A stretch of DNA of 64,000 bases from a virus (Duplodnaviria > Heunggongvirae > Uroviricota > Caudoviricetes). Positions 8,124 through 16,200 of the stretch are shown here, piece after piece. The stretch is taken from IMG/VR virus record IMGVR_UViG_2778261352_000001, positions 1,199 through 65,198 of that record. One strand, written 5' to 3'. The notes beneath the pieces are model-generated. The model was given only the letters and a program-made list of their open reading frames with translations, was not told the origin of the DNA and ran no database searches. The number at the start of each line of letters is the position of its first letter. The stretch's first letter is position 1. The position numbers and the translations under genes are program-made.

Positions 8124-8712
8124 GTATGCAACGGTCGATTTTGACCAGGTTAATGAAAAGGGGCTGAAATCCCTTATCGCGGCGATCAATAAAACCGGTG
8201 TTACGGTAATTGAGGTTGACTCCAGCAACCGAGCAACAACGAAAGATGGCGTTAAAGTTAAAACCGCAAAGCTGGTTCTTAACGACGGACAAATTCTTGC
8301 CATACAGGTAAACGATACTGGCGATATATCGTCTGTGAAACTGAATGGAAAATCTATTCCTAACGCTCAGTCGCCGGATATCAAGACGCTTGGTACCGTC
8401 ATGGGACAGGCGGCCCGCAAAAACTCCGCAAAATTCCAGAAATCACTGATCGCCAAAGCGAAGCGTGTTGCCAATCCGGTAGACAAGAAACCGGCAGTTA
8501 AATCCAACTTTCAGCGCCTGCAAGAGGCAAAACAGCGGAATGCTCAGGTGGTTGCCGCTTATAAGTCCGCACAGAATTCGGTGTCTTTCAATCAACAGCA
8601 GATCACTGATTTGCGGGCGAAGCTGGATAAGGAGACGGGCCGACTCAATAACGAAAAGGCACGGAATGGCGAACTCAAACGTCGTCTTAAGCAACTGAAA
8701 GCAGGAAATTAA
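8110..8712 (+). CDS. hdf: Hdf-like head-associated protein
   Basis: about 200 aa with coiled-coil C-terminus, immediately upstream of darA-sized gene. Confidence 0.45.
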   Translation: MTKNKYATVDFDQVNEKGLKSLIAAINKTGVTVIEVDSSNRATTKDGVKVKTAKLVLNDGQILAIQVNDTGDISSVKLNGKSIPNAQSPDIKTLGTVMGQAARKNSAKFQKSLIAKAKRVANPVDKKPAVKSNFQRLQEAKQRNAQVVAAYKSAQNSVSFNQQQITDLRAKLDKETGRLNNEKARNGELKRRLKQLKAGN

Positions 8713-8713
8713 C

Positions 8714-10633
8714 ATGGAACAGTTCAATATCAATAAAGGGGTGACGATCAAGCCTGGGCTTGACGTGCTTCCCCCGCCAGTGACTGATGATGAATATCGC
8801 GCATTAATGGCCGGTGAGGACCGCTATCTGATGACGGAATCCAACACCATGGAGGAAATCGAGGCTACGTTCTTCTATGACACGCCGATCCACTGGTGTG
8901 CTACGGATTTACTGGAGGCGATTAGTTCTACTCGTTTGCAGTTACACCGGACCATGCAGGCATTTGTCCGGGCATTGAACCAGAAGCTGAATGGCACCGG
9001 AATCTCTGCGGGGAGTGATAAAACGGGGGATGTGGCCCAGAGCGGCGCGCGCGCGATCGGCGGTGCTGAAATTGGCCGGGCACGGAACGTTAACGGGCTG
9101 CCGGTCCTGCCAGCCATTATTCCGCTCAGTGATGGTCAGACTATCAGCATTCTGTTTCATAGCCCGACAGCGGAAAACCGGATCACCAATAGCGATACGC
9201 TGGTTGCTTTCCAGTTCTTACTGAATAAAAAAGACGTTACTCACACCGTTGCTCCGATGAGTGGACGTGATATGACGCTGGCGCAGGTCACCATGAAACT
9301 TGCCAACCTTGCAGAGAAAAACTCGGCAAAATTCCAGCGTGCGCAGAAGAAGAAAAAAGCCCTGGTTGATGAAATAACCCAACTACAGGCTGACAGTGAC
9401 CAGAAAGAGGATGCCATGAGCGACCTCGCGGATCAGGTGGCAGCGGTAGAAGGGCAGAAGGTAGATCTGGAGCAGAAAATTAACGCGGTTGCTTCGGAAG
9501 CGGATTCTCTTTATCAAGAAAATGAGCGTTTGCAGGCGGAGATTGATCAGCTCAATCGCACTGGTGGGCGCGATACCATTGCTCCTGCGGGGATGACTGG
9601 TGGGCACTCTCGCGCGCTGACGGATCGCCTTGCCAGTATCAAAAATCGTATGCATATGGACGGGGAAGCGACGCTCAGTAATGGTGCATCAATGAAGCAA
9701 TTCATTGGGGATGGCGAAGGGTATATCCAGTTAACCGATCCGGATGGCAGCGTATACATGATCAAGGCTAAATCCATACAGGGTGTGGACATGGCAGAAG
9801 CGATCGGCAAGCTGTTTAAAGCCTATAAAGCGGGTAATGTATCGGAATATCTGGTCCAACCAGAAGAACATAAACCGGAAAACGTCGAACCTGAACCAGC
9901 GGAGGATACCGGTAGCTCTTCGCCTGAACCAGAAGTCTCTGTAGGTGCATATCGATATGCCCTGCAAATGCGTCCGGCGGCCCCTGGCGCAATACCTGAA
10001 GGTAACAAAGCAATTCTGCCGCGCCCTGATGAAGGTGACCCGTATTATGAATATGCACGCTACGGCATTGCTACTTACGATACCCCGCTTTCTGATCAGC
10101 AAATGAGTGAGTACGACCTGAAGTTATTGCCTCGCGAGGATTCTTTCGACTTCCTGGCGAAGACACTTACTAATGGTCCGTTTGGCAAATATGCACAAAA
10201 AGCTCTGGAGCTGGCCACCAGCTCACCAGACGAGTTCCGCGTAATGCTGAAGACTCAGTTTCAAAAAACTTTCCCCAATATTGCGTTTCCGGGGGGCGCT
10301 GGCACCGAGAAAATGGTGCAGAGCATGATCAATGCATTGCAGGCCGAAGTCGGTGAGATTACTCAGCCAGAACCGGCCCCGGCACAGCCTGATGAAACGG
10401 TTAGCGAAGCAGATGCAGAGGCTAATAAAGCCATTGAATATCTCAATAACGTGATGGATATGCAAAGCACTGACATGGCGGAGATCCGTAACGCCCGGGG
10501 CAATGTCCGGGAAGCGATTGCAGCCCTTCAGGCTGCCGGACGTTTTGAGGAAAACGAAGAGCTGGTTAATGGCGCTGCTCGCCACCTGGCTGATCTGCTG
10601 GTAGCAATCCAGAAAGCGGGGGTAGCGGCATGA
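8714..10633 (+). CDS. darA: DarA-like antirestriction / head protein
   Basis: 639 aa; size and operon context (hdf-darA-ddrA-ddrB) as in P1; internal coiled coil. Confidence 0.6.
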   Translation: MEQFNINKGVTIKPGLDVLPPPVTDDEYRALMAGEDRYLMTESNTMEEIEATFFYDTPIHWCATDLLEAISSTRLQLHRTMQAFVRALNQKLNGTGISAGSDKTGDVAQSGARAIGGAEIGRARNVNGLPVLPAIIPLSDGQTISILFHSPTAENRITNSDTLVAFQFLLNKKDVTHTVAPMSGRDMTLAQVTMKLANLAEKNSAKFQRAQKKKKALVDEITQLQADSDQKEDAMSDLADQVAAVEGQKVDLEQKINAVASEADSLYQENERLQAEIDQLNRTGGRDTIAPAGMTGGHSRALTDRLASIKNRMHMDGEATLSNGASMKQFIGDGEGYIQLTDPDGSVYMIKAKSIQGVDMAEAIGKLFKAYKAGNVSEYLVQPEEHKPENVEPEPAEDTGSSSPEPEVSVGAYRYALQMRPAAPGAIPEGNKAILPRPDEGDPYYEYARYGIATYDTPLSDQQMSEYDLKLLPREDSFDFLAKTLTNGPFGKYAQKALELATSSPDEFRVMLKTQFQKTFPNIAFPGGAGTEKMVQSMINALQAEVGEITQPEPAPAQPDETVSEADAEANKAIEYLNNVMDMQSTDMAEIRNARGNVREAIAALQAAGRFEENEELVNGAARHLADLLVAIQKAGVAA

Positions 10634-10995
10634 CACTATCAGCTATTGAGTTAATGGATCTCAGCGATAAGTTGGATGCTCTGATGTCCAAAGCGGCTAC
10701 CGCGAGTGGCATGGAGTTGCTGGATATCAGCGATGAAATTGACCAGATCATGCAACAGATGGGGTACGGCGCGTCCGGCGGCAGTAGTGGCGAGGAAAAA
10801 CAACCTTCGGTACATGATGGTGTGCCAAAACTGGTTGCTGATTTCCTGGCTGATAAATTCGTCGATCAGAGCACAGATGCATTTATCGGTACCTTGCAGG
10901 ACTTGAGTCAATATGTTGGCACATACATCGACCTGGACCAGGTTAAACAGCACACGGCGGCATGGATAGCCGCCAACATTGAAGAGGCAGCATAA
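10630..10995 (+). CDS. ddrA: DdrA-like protein
   Basis: 121 aa acidic protein, ATGA-coupled after darA. Confidence 0.5.
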   Translation: MTLSAIELMDLSDKLDALMSKAATASGMELLDISDEIDQIMQQMGYGASGGSSGEEKQPSVHDGVPKLVADFLADKFVDQSTDAFIGTLQDLSQYVGTYIDLDQVKQHTAAWIAANIEEAA

Positions 10996-11007
10996 GGCGT
11001 AACAGGG

Positions 11008-13995
11008 ATGAGCTTAAGCGATCAGGTGGTAATGGCCACCAGCATAGAAACGCTGATCGAGCTGCTTAAGAACCTGCCCGATTATGGGCGGGTTTCGTAT
11101 GTGGTGACAGCGAAGGGAGACGAGGTAAAAACAGCGTTTGATATCGTCGATGCCTCAGCTCTTTTGGTATCCAATACTCTGGATGGGAAAATTAATCCTG
11201 ACTATCCCCAGGAACTTCAGCCGCGCGACCGGACCCGCGCATCCAGCCTTCTTCAGGTTAACCAGATATCCAAAGATTTGCGGCCTGCTCAGCTTACTGA
11301 TTCCGGTTTATCCAGCCATGGTGCGCCGATAATTGGTGAGGACAATGCCGTTGAGTCAGGTAATGGACGGACCATGGGGATCATCAAAGCCTATCAGGAC
11401 GGCAATGCGGATCGGTATCGTGAGTACCTGATTGATCATGCGACCGAATTCGGCATACGACCTGAAAAGGTCGAATCAATGACGGCTCCGGTACTGGTGC
11501 GCCGCCGGTTAACTAAGGTTGACCGCGTTCAGTTTGCCAAGGACTCAAATATTTCTGATCTTCAGGAAATGGCAGCCAGTGAAAAGGCTTTTGTTGATGC
11601 CGACAGCATAACACCGGCGATGATGGCGCTTTTTAACCCGTCAGAAAGCGGAGATCTGCTTAGCCGCAGTAATGACGCGTTTATTCGCGGATTCATGACG
11701 CAAGTTGGTGCTACACAGGCGGCTGGACTTGTAACTGAAGATGGGCGACCAACACGGCAACTTGTTGACCGGATACAAAACGCGATCTTTGCCAAGGCAT
11801 ATAAGGATGCGCGCTTGGTAAGGATGGTTGCAGAAGAACCTGATCCGGATATGCGTAATGTTCTGACGGCGCTTAATGCGGCGGCCAATGATTTTGTCCA
11901 GATGCAGGCTTTATCAGGAGAAGCGCACAAGCAGGCTGTGACAACCATCGTTGATGGCATTGAAACAGCTGATAGCCTCGATAAAAAGGCGCTGGCGGCA
12001 TTGAAAGATGCGGTAGACCTGGTAAGGCAATCGAAGGAGTCAGGCCAACATATTACCGATGTTATTGCTCAGGGGGATATGTTCAGCGAAACAGCCCCGG
12101 AAGTGAAAGCTCTCGCGTTGTTCATCGTCGCGAATAACCGTAGCGCGAAGCGTATGGCCACCGCCTTTAAATTGATGGCTCAACGTATCAATGATGAGTT
12201 ACAGCACCAGGGCCAGGCGCTGGGGGATATGTTTGGCGGTGGTGATGTGTCGTTACAGGAGATCCTTCGCCAGGTGTCTCAGGAACTGGAAAACGAAGGC
12301 ATGCAAGGGATATCCGGCGGTCTTTTCGAGTCCGTTTCCGGCGGTAGTTACAACGGTGTTGCTCCATATACCAGTTTGCTATTACATCGGGCATCCGGCA
12401 TCAAAGACATTATTCATCTGATCAGGCTGCTATCCCGCACCGATCCCCAGGATGAGCAGCTTGTACAAGTGCTTGCGCATTTTGTCCGAATGCCTGTTGC
12501 CGACGTGAAAAAATGGTGCCGATTATTCGGTATCAGCAATTCGTTACTTCGCGGATTGTTAAATCACGCATCCTCCCTTGGGCGCGATGGCTTTGACGAG
12601 ATAGCGCAGGCGATAAAAAACGGAGATATGCCACCAGCTATTGACTGGTTTTCCATTCGCCCAACCAGGGTGAAAGCATTCCTTAGCGCGGCGCATTCGG
12701 CATCACCATTGGCAGAAATGGTTCAGAGGCTGTCGCTCATATTCACAGACCATACCGCGTTGGGTGATCTGACTCTGGACGAGATGAAAGATGCCTCCAT
12801 TCAGTGGGCCGATCAACAAAATGAGGTTAACTCAGACTTCTTGCCAGCATTCAGGAAGGCCGTTAGTAAAGCGGATGATGCCCGTGGGATTCTGAAGGCA
12901 TTTAAGGCATTGCAAAGTCGTGTTAATAAACATGTCGGTGATATCGATGGGGTAACGGCGGAAGGCCGGGATATCCTTAAAGAGCACGGCATAACGCCAG
13001 AGTTTATTGATGAGATCAGGACTGATATGCAGCGTGAGGTCGTATCGTCCCTGCAAATCGTAGCCAGAGCGTTGGCGGATGCTAATCCGAAGAGTGCGGG
13101 CATTGTTAACCGGGTTATTGGTGATATTGAAGCATCGGAGGGCATGGGGGCACTGAAACTCTTCCTTTCGCGAGCGTTTAATCCTAACGGCAATATTCTC
13201 CCTGGCATTATTGGTGAGGCTAAAAAGCATGTCAGTGAAGAAGAACTTGAGCAGCTTAACCAGCTACTCAATCGATTTTCATATATCCCGCAGAAACGCT
13301 GGCAAATGAATCAGCGTAGTATGGATTCGGTCTACGAGAAAGTGTTATCTGCCATGAACAGTGCGATCGCCAACTCATCCGTATCAGAAGAAAAAGCTCT
13401 TGAGTGGGCCGACTCTTTTATCACGGAAGAAGTGGAAGAAGCCCGCGCTGGACAGAATGGTGGAATAGACCTGCGCAAGGAACTTGCTGATATTTATCGC
13501 CTGACCGGCGGGAAAATATCAACCTTATCAAGGGTAATTCACCACAAGGGTAGGGCGTATGCAAATCTTAATGGTGTTGTTGCTGTCGATTTGCACGATG
13601 AAAATGCAAATGCACTGTGGCACGAGCTGGGTCATCATCTTGAGTACAGTAACCCGGGTTTGTTAGAGAAAGCCAGGTCATTCCTGAAGGCCAATGTTGA
13701 AGGGGATAAGCCATCTTTCGTTAATATCGGTGGGCGTGGCAAGCCTGAATGGTGCTTCAGATCTCGATTGAGTGATATTTATATGGCGAAGGTATACCCG
13801 CCTGTCTCAGTGAGTAATTCTGGTAAATTTCGACACAAATCTCCGACAATTTCCAAAACGTCAGCAACGGAAGTGTTCTCTATGGCTCTTCAGTTGTATC
13901 ATGACAAAGAGGCCGCTGCCGCATCACTGATGAATGGTGACGGATTGCTGGAACTGTTATTAGGTGTGGCAAAGGAGCTAAATAATGCAGATTAA
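11008..13995 (+). CDS. ddrB: DdrB-like large protein
   Basis: 995 aa, size and synteny with P1 ddrB. Confidence 0.55.
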   Translation: MSLSDQVVMATSIETLIELLKNLPDYGRVSYVVTAKGDEVKTAFDIVDASALLVSNTLDGKINPDYPQELQPRDRTRASSLLQVNQISKDLRPAQLTDSGLSSHGAPIIGEDNAVESGNGRTMGIIKAYQDGNADRYREYLIDHATEFGIRPEKVESMTAPVLVRRRLTKVDRVQFAKDSNISDLQEMAASEKAFVDADSITPAMMALFNPSESGDLLSRSNDAFIRGFMTQVGATQAAGLVTEDGRPTRQLVDRIQNAIFAKAYKDARLVRMVAEEPDPDMRNVLTALNAAANDFVQMQALSGEAHKQAVTTIVDGIETADSLDKKALAALKDAVDLVRQSKESGQHITDVIAQGDMFSETAPEVKALALFIVANNRSAKRMATAFKLMAQRINDELQHQGQALGDMFGGGDVSLQEILRQVSQELENEGMQGISGGLFESVSGGSYNGVAPYTSLLLHRASGIKDIIHLIRLLSRTDPQDEQLVQVLAHFVRMPVADVKKWCRLFGISNSLLRGLLNHASSLGRDGFDEIAQAIKNGDMPPAIDWFSIRPTRVKAFLSAAHSASPLAEMVQRLSLIFTDHTALGDLTLDEMKDASIQWADQQNEVNSDFLPAFRKAVSKADDARGILKAFKALQSRVNKHVGDIDGVTAEGRDILKEHGITPEFIDEIRTDMQREVVSSLQIVARALADANPKSAGIVNRVIGDIEASEGMGALKLFLSRAFNPNGNILPGIIGEAKKHVSEEELEQLNQLLNRFSYIPQKRWQMNQRSMDSVYEKVLSAMNSAIANSSVSEEKALEWADSFITEEVEEARAGQNGGIDLRKELADIYRLTGGKISTLSRVIHHKGRAYANLNGVVAVDLHDENANALWHELGHHLEYSNPGLLEKARSFLKANVEGDKPSFVNIGGRGKPEWCFRSRLSDIYMAKVYPPVSVSNSGKFRHKSPTISKTSATEVFSMALQLYHDKEAAAASLMNGDGLLELLLGVAKELNNAD

Positions 13996-14293
13996 AATCG
14001 CAGCGCCATTAGGCGGAGATGCCATTATCGAATTTGATGATAATGAAGAAGTTTCCGGGCGTTTAAGCATTATCTCCGGTGACATTACCGAGGACATGAT
14101 CGCTGAAGCCATAGCTGGAGCAAATCCCAATAGCTATATGGGATTCGTTAACACCCTTGATGCTCCCGCAAGTGATGTTCTCCGAACGCTGCATCTTTAC
14201 GCTGGCTGGTTTGTTGATTGGCCAGCAGTAGATGGTGGCGATGAGGACGACGACGATGATTTTGGTGATCATGTAGACCAGATCGTATATTGA
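13985..14293 (+). CDS. small highly acidic protein (Asp-rich C-terminus)
   Basis: 102 aa, overlaps ddrB stop by 11 bp, DDDDD tract, followed by terminator. Confidence 0.4.
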   Translation: MQIKIAAPLGGDAIIEFDDNEEVSGRLSIISGDITEDMIAEAIAGANPNSYMGFVNTLDAPASDVLRTLHLYAGWFVDWPAVDGGDEDDDDDFGDHVDQIVY

Positions 14294-14295
14294 AG

Positions 14296-14321
14296 AAATC
14301 CCGCCAATCGGCGGGATTTTT
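14296..14321. terminator. bidirectional rho-independent terminator
   Basis: AAATCCCGCC-aatc-GGCGGGATTT hairpin followed by T-run, between convergent genes. Confidence 0.6.
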
Positions 14322-14324
14322 ACC

Positions 14325-15419
14325 TCACGAGAAGCTCTTTTCTGATGTCAGCCAACAGTGCTCGTGCAAATCTCTTGGTGGTTTTTCGACAAATGCCTCT
14401 TCAGCCACATCCTGCCAGGGGATTTGTTTAGCCCATTCAGTTATAGCGTTATGGTTTGCCGAGAATAACGGTATTGTATAGGCCTTCAGCCAGTCTAATG
14501 TGCTGGAGTTGTGTTTTTGAGCGTGATGTTTCGCATGGTGTTTGGCGATCACGATCGTAGGCACTACCCATTTACTACCGTCAGTCATTGTGAAGTGCAT
14601 ATTACGGGGAACAGATGACTTTTCCATCAACTCCCGAATCCCGGGGAATTTCCCCAAGATCAATCGACGATATTCATCGCTATTGCGCCCACCAAACTCT
14701 TTGGCTTTGAATTCAAGATATGCTTCAGAAACGAGAGGTGAATCCTCTGTGCTGAGAGTTATCGCCGTGAAAATACCAGCAGGATTGTTCTCACTATGGG
14801 CCAACCGGTGATGCGAATCATAAAAATACCCTTTCTCTCGTTCCGATGGTTTCGACAGCAACAGCAGGCGCGAATCATAACCGGTCAAATTGCCTGTTAT
14901 CACAGCATGAGCGCGGTCGCTGATTTCTGCCGCGTTAATAACGATGAAAAGATCGTGCGGTCCAGTAAAACCAGCCAGAGACTCTTCGTTATTCAGACAA
15001 TAGGTTATATAGACGCATCCCCATGTTTCACTGATATGCACCAACCCTTTGTCAGGGTGTATTCTGAAATAATTGCCAAGAAAAGGGTGTTTTTGGGTAA
15101 CTCGCTCCCAATAACGGAACATATAGTCAATTATTGTTTTTCGACTATCGTTAATCGCAGGAGAAACAACCACTGTACGGGAACACGAATACAGTATTGT
15201 TTGCAGGATGCTAATCACTGCCACAATAGAGGTTTCCCCAATACCATGTGGTGTGGTGGCAGTGACTTTGGCTCCGGTGTTCTTTATCGCGTTAATAATT
15301 TTTGCTTGATGAGGTGTTAACTCAATATCAAGCAACTCTTTTGCTGCCAGTTCCCAATTGTATTTATACCGTTCTATCAGTGCTAACCAGGCAGATTCAT
15401 TCTGTATACGATTAATCAC
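14325..15419 (-). CDS. terminase large-subunit ATPase-domain paralog with degenerate Walker motifs
   Basis: Aligns with PacB (34139..35623) over the ATPase region (LLLLSKPSEREKGYFYDSHHRLA vs [22 protein letters not shown]); Walker A GTGKS replaced by GIGETS, Walker B IIDEAS replaced by VINAAE; no nuclease domain. Confidence 0.6.
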   Translation of the reverse strand: MINRIQNESAWLALIERYKYNWELAAKELLDIELTPHQAKIINAIKNTGAKVTATTPHGIGETSIVAVISILQTILYSCSRTVVVSPAINDSRKTIIDYMFRYWERVTQKHPFLGNYFRIHPDKGLVHISETWGCVYITYCLNNEESLAGFTGPHDLFIVINAAEISDRAHAVITGNLTGYDSRLLLLSKPSEREKGYFYDSHHRLAHSENNPAGIFTAITLSTEDSPLVSEAYLEFKAKEFGGRNSDEYRRLILGKFPGIRELMEKSSVPRNMHFTMTDGSKWVVPTIVIAKHHAKHHAQKHNSSTLDWLKAYTIPLFSANHNAITEWAKQIPWQDVAEEAFVEKPPRDLHEHCWLTSEKSFS

Positions 15420-16200
15420 TTTCCACCTCTTCCGTGGTGTTTTCTTGCAGTTCTGTTAATGCAGCACGACATAGGTTCCGGGCATTGGCTATAGCCACAC
15501 TTTTGACTTCATCCGTCATCGTGCAGGTAATGTACTGATCGAGTTCTTCAGCGCGGATGATGCTTTTGCCAATCAGAAACTGTATTTGCCATAGCAGATC
15601 GGCATCCATAATCAGAATTTCTGCCGGGCCTTCAGGGCCAGCCGGGAAGGAAACATAAGACTGTTTGCCCAGGCCGACAACTCGACAACTTGCTTCAAGA
15701 ATTGCGCGCTTGAGGTCTGTCTTTATAACGGAAACAGGTTGATTTTCACCAGTGATTACGCCGTTGACATGGAAAGGCATGTAGCTTGAAATACGCTCCA
15801 CTTTCCACACGCCAGCAAGCGATCCTTCATGCAGCACAATGGGGGTAACCGCGAGTTTCATCTCACCATATAACTGCTGGCAGATAGCTGGATTGCTGAA
15901 TACATCTAAAGGCTCACATTCAAACAGCGGCGCAATCTGCATGAGGTCCATCATGGTCATCCCTGGGGTACGAGCAGTAATGAATTTGCGCATACCAGTA
16001 TCCATTGCGATCCAGATTGCTACACCATGCTTTTTGCTCACTTCTTCAGTAAAGCCAAGGTGGCACATGATGGTTTTTTCGATAGCCAGATCAGAGATAG
16101 AAACCTTTTCGCCTGGCACTCCATCATTATTGATGGTCACTTCGACACTCTGGCCATTACGTAGGCGGTATTGAATGGTTTTAGTATTTTGTGCTGTCAT
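15412..16200 (-). CDS. hypothetical protein
   Basis: 262 aa, 8-bp overlap with downstream gene. Confidence 0.45.
   Translation of the reverse strand: MTAQNTKTIQYRLRNGQSVEVTINNDGVPGEKVSISDLAIEKTIMCHLGFTEEVSKKHGVAIWIAMDTGMRKFITARTPGMTMMDLMQIAPLFECEPLDVFSNPAICQQLYGEMKLAVTPIVLHEGSLAGVWKVERISSYMPFHVNGVITGENQPVSVIKTDLKRAILEASCRVVGLGKQSYVSFPAGPEGPAEILIMDADLLWQIQFLIGKSIIRAEELDQYITCTMTDEVKSVAIANARNLCRAALTELQENTTEEVESD

Follow-up and report, generated by a model that had tools for sequence, protein, structure and literature searches.

What is the function of the small, very acidic protein encoded at the end of the darA operon of P1-like phages, and does it belong to the antirestriction (Dar) system that this operon specifies? 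The question is raised by a 64,000-nt stretch of viral DNA (IMG/VR record IMGVR_UViG_2778261352_000001, positions 1,199 to 65,198; hereafter the window), in which a 102-codon open reading frame (ORF) overlaps the end of ddrB. A preliminary description of this DNA had proposed that the ORF codes for a DNA mimic that counteracts restriction. To our knowledge, the molecular means by which the Dar proteins block type I restriction are still unsolved. The analysis reported here identifies the ORF as gene hxr of phage P1, a gene that was already known and is not new, and suggests, tentatively, that Hxr is a Dar accessory protein specific to the rapidly evolving C-terminal module of DdrB. The features at this end of the operon are as follows:

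13985-14293, plus strand: hxr, ATG start, 102 amino acids (aa); predicted folded alpha/beta domain at residues ~1-82 and disordered acidic tail at residues 83-102; PHROG 2292.
13972-13977, plus strand: Shine-Dalgarno sequence of hxr, AAGGAG, located within the ddrB coding sequence, with the ATG 7 nt further on.
14294-14321, no strand assigned: terminator hairpin of 12 pairs, beginning straight after the hxr TGA.
11008-13995, plus strand: ddrB, 995 aa, net charge -24; ParB-like N-terminal part, hypervariable middle and C-terminal part with an HExxH motif.

The ORF was found exactly where it had been described, overlapping ddrB by 11 nt (the ddrB TAA stop codon lies at 13993-13995), and both the acidity of its product and the terminator reported directly after it were borne out. 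Hxr contains 17 Asp and 6 Glu residues (22.5% of the total), one Lys and two Arg, giving a net charge of -20 and a pI of ~4.05; the DEDDDDD tract spans residues 86-92. When the 95 ATG-initiated ORFs of at least 90 aa present in the six frames of the window were ranked by acidity, Hxr came first, at -0.196 per residue (runner-up, -0.135). The hairpin has a stability of -19.3 kcal/mol (z = -4.0; none of 200 shuffled sequences was equally stable), and occupies the 31-nt gap that separates hxr from a convergent gene on the minus strand (14325-15419). Since a U-rich run follows its GC core on either strand, it is probably a bidirectional intrinsic terminator. A simple terminator scanner overlooked it because an A-run located upstream draws the T-run into the stem by pairing with it. 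The overlap of the hxr start with the ddrB stop, together with a Shine-Dalgarno sequence located within ddrB, suggests that translation of hxr is probably coupled to that of ddrB. Long spurious ORFs (>100 aa) are frequent opposite ddrB, so the length of the hxr ORF is not significant by itself. P1 has an annotated antisense ORF, iddB, within ddrB (P1 locus L001, 3863-4261); the window has antisense ORFs in ddrB at 12813-13271 and 12832-13230 (minus strand; 152 and 132 aa), which look like chance ORFs.

A megablast search of a phage collection matched 19 P1-like genomes at 96-98% identity, and the feature annotated underneath was Hxr. In the P1 reference, hxr (P1_gp021, YP_006490.1) is found directly behind ddrB with an identical overlap, and its product has the same length as that of the window, from which it differs at two of 102 residues (~98% identity). 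P1 therefore carries the equivalent of this ORF at the same place. The window protein matched PHROG 2292 with E = 2e-59, its residues 1-102 aligning with profile positions 1-105 of 105; the database labels this family as of ‘unknown function’. A genome-wide CRISPRi analysis of P1 found hxr to be non-essential (efficiency of plating, 1.6) and repeated the label ‘possible repressor’ (PMC10695390), while structural work describes the Dar system as consisting of at least six proteins, with Hxr unmentioned (PMC12810830). A search of the searchable literature found no paper testing hxr function and no hxr-specific mutant.

Sequence comparisons indicate that hxr is a real protein-coding gene, because frame, start context and position are all retained in homologs with only 20-60% identity, indels are of whole codons, and dN/dS values are low (~0.16-0.35 in pairwise comparisons where dS was estimable; dS was >1 and near saturation). 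Wherever the flanking sequence sufficed, the start of the hxr homolog lay 8-17 nt ahead of the stop codon of a ddrB gene coding for ~1000 aa (L005, L006, L007, L010, L011, L012-L015, L020, L023 and L024-L029, plus the short contigs L003, L008 and L009; further loci were gathered with the ddrB alignment). An (A)AGGAG sequence was present 7 nt ahead of the start in eight of the nine loci examined, the exception being L004, with CAGGAG. The gene located behind hxr varied with the locus (ssb, a CHAP-domain gene, a porin gene, toxin-antitoxin genes or unknown genes). A GC hairpin followed by a T-run was found behind hxr in most diverged homologs (L003, L005, L007, L008, L010/L011), and was absent in P1.

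When 1.84 billion representative proteins were searched exhaustively with an Hxr profile, 19 hits were obtained in all, among them a tandem-duplicated form and six genuine distant homologs with lengths of 96-100 aa and identities of 31-43%. A second search, for which the alignment was broadened, gave 28 clusters, all of 84-107 aa or duplicated (184-187 aa); the long contigs that it recovered (~80-95 kb) belonged to Enterobacterales, such as Escherichia, Citrobacter, Serratia and Rosenbergiella. At two further ddrB loci, L014 of Serratia and L020 of Rosenbergiella, ORFs of 104 and 107 aa with net charges of -17 and -14 occupy the same ddrB-overlapping position and align as very diverged Hxr homologs (E = 0.014 for L014 against PHROG 2292); ORFs of both types were recovered by the second search. 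In these searches, Hxr is thus a tiny family limited to P1-like plasmid prophages of Enterobacterales. Three large proteins with weak matches (P0024, P0026 and P0027) were considered as polyvalent fusions containing an Hxr domain, and were rejected since they turned out to be repeat or unrelated proteins (SprB/DUF11, FG-GAP, DUF3854). In some P1/P7-like elements (L023, 8001-8555, equivalent to P0015; and P0028), the Hxr domain is tandem-duplicated after ddrB, giving a protein of 184-187 aa in which the first copy has a short acidic linker only and the second the full poly-Asp tail. The poly-Asp run, encoded by GAC/GAT codons (14240-14257 in the window), ranges from five to eight Asp residues among near-identical P1-like genomes (P0001-P0004, L013). 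Its length changes in whole codons only, which looks like slippage under coding constraint.

The conservation of DdrB is very uneven along its length. Residues 36-167 match Pfam PF18763 (ddrB-ParB; E = 2.7e-39), and the invariant residues include W871, H872, E873, G875, H876, H877 and E879, in which H872-E873-x-x-H876 forms the HExxH motif. In earlier work, DdrB has been described as a delivered protein of the polyvalent, self-processing kind, in which a ParB-like domain is combined with a metallopeptidase domain (PMC5512222). Over eight loci, mean identity was 69% for the ParB-like part (residues 1-445), 25% for residues 446-800 and 42% for residues 801-995; for Hxr it was 33%. When the window DdrB was compared with that of L007, identity dropped at about residue 450, from 76-98% to 16-46%. 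The divergence of Hxr followed that of DdrB residues 446-800 (Spearman rho 0.83) and 801-995 (rho 0.88; Mantel p ~5e-4), whereas its correlation with residues 1-445 was just 0.37. In addition, four loci from Enterobacter, Pantoea and Erwinia (L016-L019) carry a short ddrB (467-501 aa) that ends near the mosaic breakpoint; they contained neither the C-terminal part of DdrB nor any Hxr-like ORF within 6 kb. The mosaic structure and the short forms suggest that DdrB has two separable functional modules, and, in the sequences compared, DdrB 446-995 plus Hxr appear to behave as one fast-evolving, removable module. Although DdrB is otherwise acidic, the stretch just past its HExxH motif is conserved as basic (+7 to +9 over 80 alignment columns), and is a possible docking site for Hxr. 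A DdrB-like ParB domain was also found far outside Enterobacterales, in a Desulfobacterales metagenome-assembled genome (L021), where it is part of a polyvalent-type ORF of >2,900 aa (frame open from 3676 to 12420, running past the end of the locus) with 36% identity over residues 44-392.

The reading that we favour, with limited confidence and at less than even chances, is that Hxr is a Dar accessory protein dedicated to the C-terminal module of DdrB, which comprises the hypervariable region and a peptidase-like domain with the HExxH motif. It is preferred because of the strict synteny of hxr with ddrB, the covariation with the C-terminal module, the joint absence of both and the basic stretch that follows HExxH; hxr indeed lies directly downstream of the variable module, varies along with it and is missing together with it, as a partner gene should, with physical linkage as a confounder. 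It also rests on the composition of the P1 virion, whose reported proteome includes DdrB, DdrA, DarA, Hdf, DarB and Ulx, while Hxr is absent from both the text and the supplement (PMC9024508). Under this reading, translational coupling to ddrB would provide Hxr in stoichiometric amounts, and the acidic surface and tail of Hxr would bind and mask a basic or nucleic acid-binding surface of the DdrB C-terminal module. Masking would take place in the phage-producing cell, making Hxr a putative cognate chaperone or inhibitor, comparable in form to an immunity protein or a secretion chaperone; it would be left behind, or co-packaged, when DdrB enters the head. We infer both the physical partnership of Hxr with DdrB and the masking mechanism from these comparisons.

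Several observations weigh against a dedicated partnership with DdrB. Covariation and joint absence are equally expected from physical linkage, that is, from one recombination cassette or one deletion; a contiguous deletion from the middle of ddrB to the terminator would fit the short forms, and the four short-ddrB loci may represent a single event. Tight overlaps are common in the operon (lydB/hdf, darA/ddrA), and coupling is therefore not peculiar to ddrB and hxr. The absence of Hxr from the virion list is weak evidence, because the proteome was obtained with trypsin and a cut-off of two unique peptides, and the three tryptic sites of Hxr generate peptides of 4, 22, 41 and 35 residues, of which essentially one is usable. 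Plaque formation on a host that does not restrict does not require the gene (PMC10695390), a result that says nothing on restriction. Finally, locus L004 has an isolated hxr copy without ddrB, where only ~60 nt of the end of ddrB are left upstream of hxr. This copy (2024-2326) is a homolog with 60% identity and a TTG start that lies near a dinI-like gene in a 2.7-kb contig. It may be a decaying remnant; the alternative is that hxr can exist without ddrB.

A broader proposal is that Hxr is an overlooked seventh Dar component with a fold not seen before, acting either as an inhibitor or chaperone of the DdrB module or as a DNA mimic of new fold that blocks restriction enzymes. We regard it as possible, although somewhat doubtful. 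Its setting is the operon itself, which is complete in the window and has the P1 gene order (lydA-lydB-hdf-darA-ddrA-ddrB-hxr). Upstream of ddrB it includes:

7307-7325, plus strand: late promoter LPdar, with the -22 element AAGTTACTT at 7307-7315 and the -10 element TACCAT at 7320-7325; identical to the annotated P1 LPdar.
7354-8123, plus strand: lydA (7354-7683) and lydB (7680-8123), the first genes of the operon, assigned from the ORF list and the P1 gene order.
8101-8712, plus strand: hdf, 203 aa, net charge +21, pI 10.2.
8714-10633, plus strand: darA, 639 aa, net charge -32.
10630-10995, plus strand: ddrA, 121 aa, net charge -15, pI 4.05.

No sigma-70-like promoter that might serve hxr internally was found on the plus strand within the operon. 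LPdar is presumed to drive the whole operon, hxr included, and, to judge from this promoter, hxr would be expressed late. Lying between ddrB and the terminator, and downstream of the conserved LPdar, hxr is encoded in the darA operon as Dar genes are; the preliminary description was right in placing the ORF at the end of an antirestriction operon, and hxr keeps this position of last cistron in homologs down to ~20-40% identity. The products of the operon carry extreme and opposite charges, Hdf (+21) on one side and DdrA (-15) and DarA (-32) on the other. DdrA is as acidic as Hxr, and would be an equally good candidate for a DNA mimic if acidity were the criterion.

The likeliest alternative to a partnership with DdrB is that Hxr, as an operon component or passenger, serves a purpose related neither to DdrB nor to restriction. 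It might be a generic acidic internal head protein that aids ejection or balances charge, or it might influence head morphogenesis, the timing of lysis or the frequency of transduction. The darA operon has been associated with all these phenotypes; it includes the lysis genes lydA and lydB and the head-size determinants hdf and darA, and several of its products (Hdf, DarA and DdrA) are as strongly charged as listed above; the finding that hxr is non-essential would also fit. However, the distribution and divergence of Hxr follow the C-terminal module of DdrB specifically, and none of the observations speaks positively for such a role. We therefore consider this alternative somewhat unlikely.

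The proposal that Hxr is a free-standing DNA mimic can be judged from its predicted structure and its charge. AlphaFold2, supplied with a diverse alignment, produced five concordant models with a mean pLDDT of 72-76. In them, residues 1-82 (pLDDT ~85) form a beta-beta-beta-alpha-alpha-beta arrangement and residues 83-102 are disordered. Hxr is therefore predicted to consist of an alpha/beta domain of ~80 residues, with an unmatched fold, and a disordered polyacidic tail of ~20 residues. Acidity is kept in all homologs, in the domain (-5 to -10) as well as in the tail (-8 to -11), with a net charge of -13 to -20 for the whole protein. In the tail, sequence conservation is confined to a hydrophobic C-terminal tip. 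Mimicry of the C-terminal tail of SSB was considered and rejected, since the tip ([IVT][VI][NY]-COOH), judged by eye, is unlike the DDDIPF motif. Comparison with the known mimic families Ocr, ArdA, Arn and ArdB/KlcA gave no Pfam family and no PDB sequence match beyond chance, and no similarity in fold was found between the Hxr model and solved DNA mimics. Hxr hence belongs to no known family of DNA mimics such as Ocr, ArdA or Arn.

As a DNA mimic, Hxr would block the DNA-binding groove of a type I enzyme, or that of another DNA-targeting defence, as Ocr and ArdA do; it would act within the infected cell or, if packaged along with the Dar proteins, upon being injected together with them. Part of this proposal stood up to analysis: the composition fits, the folded domain is acidic, and Hxr has the dense negative surface charge of functional mimics, a property that is necessary but not sufficient. 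The rest was not supported, though not refuted either: no likeness in sequence or fold to a known mimic was found, and half of the charge is carried by a disordered tail rather than by a rigid, DNA-shaped surface. The extreme and conserved acidity of a protein of ~100 residues, in domain and tail alike, its small size, its encoding in an operon devoted to antirestriction and its location in a fast-evolving segment, as would be expected for arms-race proteins, all favour mimicry; in addition, virion proteomics would probably have missed it, and DNA mimics are structurally so diverse that a missing fold match does not exclude the idea. On the other hand, acidity is not distinctive within the operon, since the pI of DdrA (4.05) equals that of Hxr and both DarA and DdrB are acidic as well, so this property does not discriminate. 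Besides, LPdar is a late promoter, and a mimic made late must therefore be packaged to protect incoming DNA, whereas Hxr is not in the reported virion proteome; nor is hxr ever found apart from a full-length ddrB, with the exception of the one possibly degenerate copy in L004. Free-standing mimicry thus appears unlikely.

The existing database annotation makes Hxr a transcriptional repressor. Since 2004, GenBank has labeled P1 hxr as ‘possible repressor; homolog of Xre’, on the grounds that residues 23-80 of Hxr are 28% identical to residues 2-80 of an Xre phage repressor. This identity is the evidence in favour of an Xre-type helix-turn-helix (HTH) protein. However, Hxr and seven of its homologs gave no HTH_3 hit, nor any other match, against Pfam and NCBIfam with E values up to 10, and a profile search of all PDB sequences with Hxr detected no HTH protein, returning RapA only, at chance level (E = 1.6). 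Hxr does not have the all-helical, five-helix fold with a basic DNA-binding surface, its N-terminal half being rich in beta structure, and a pI of ~4.05 with three basic residues is incompatible with a DNA-binding repressor; a place in a late operon is also ill-suited to a repressor. The Xre/HTH annotation is therefore not supported and can be considered effectively refuted, a repressor function being very improbable. Least credible of all, with a practically negligible probability, is that the ORF is a chance, untranslated one: the window has many spurious ORFs longer than 100 codons, for example opposite ddrB, but this explanation is already refuted by the conservation found in the sequences compared, in which ORF, Shine-Dalgarno sequence and position are maintained at 20-60% identity, a PHROG family exists, dN is far below dS and indels affect whole codons only.

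The label ‘putative repressor’ has spread to many records of P1-like phages and plasmids, and may have deterred testing. The present results support correcting the annotation of hxr. What they add is this correction of the repressor label, the description of an orphan fold with a conserved polyacidic tail, the strict retention of hxr as the last, ddrB-coupled cistron of the Dar operon, and its covariation with the variable half of DdrB. Given the unfounded label, the strict conservation alongside full-length ddrB and the covariation with the C-terminal module, hxr is a cheap and well-defined candidate for a seventh Dar component. To judge from sequence data, antirestriction activity of Hxr is a possible, candidate role; if Hxr proves irrelevant to restriction, the outcome would be a tidier annotation.

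The segment right behind the hxr terminator (14325-16200, minus strand) is a variable cargo slot that can be compared with positions 6706-9269 of L001. In the window it begins with the following ORF:

14325-15419, minus strand: terminase-large-subunit-like ORF, 364 aa; match to phrog_5902 and weak match to phrog_2.

Behind this ORF there is an IsaA homolog with 95% identity to P1 IsaA. In P1 c1-100 the slot contains isaB-IS1-isaA, and the annotated P1 IsaA has 56 extra N-terminal residues beside IS1. Elsewhere, the slot contains a porin gene (L023), ssb directly (L007), a CHAP-domain gene (L010, L024) or toxin-antitoxin genes (L005, L027).

Compared with known systems, Hxr is tied to the repressors of the Xre/Cro-C1 type (Pfam HTH_3) by historical annotation alone; it differs from them in lacking a profile match, in its non-helical N-terminal half and in its acidic pI. 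With T7 Ocr, ArdA and T4 Arn it shares a small size, a very low pI, a richness in Asp and Glu, and the location of its gene on a mobile element beside antirestriction functions. Unlike these proteins, to which it is similar neither in sequence nor in fold, Hxr has half of its charge in a disordered tail, and its gene is probably late, rather than early or in a leading region, and is obligatorily linked to ddrB. As a small acidic protein encoded just downstream of a variable C-terminal module with which it co-varies, Hxr also resembles the immunity proteins of polymorphic toxins and the acidic chaperones of type III secretion; this is an analogy only, as no homology of Hxr to any such family was found and DdrB is not known to be toxic. 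The closest relative is the Hxr protein of P1 (YP_006490.1, PHROG 2292), an ortholog of the same length whose gene has the same 11-nt overlap with ddrB and likewise closes the darA operon. The two loci part right behind the hxr stop codon, where the P1 c1-100 sequence departs into isaB-IS1-isaA and lacks the hairpin, whereas the window and genomes of the MH422554/MH445380 type have a strong terminator followed by the terminase-like ORF.

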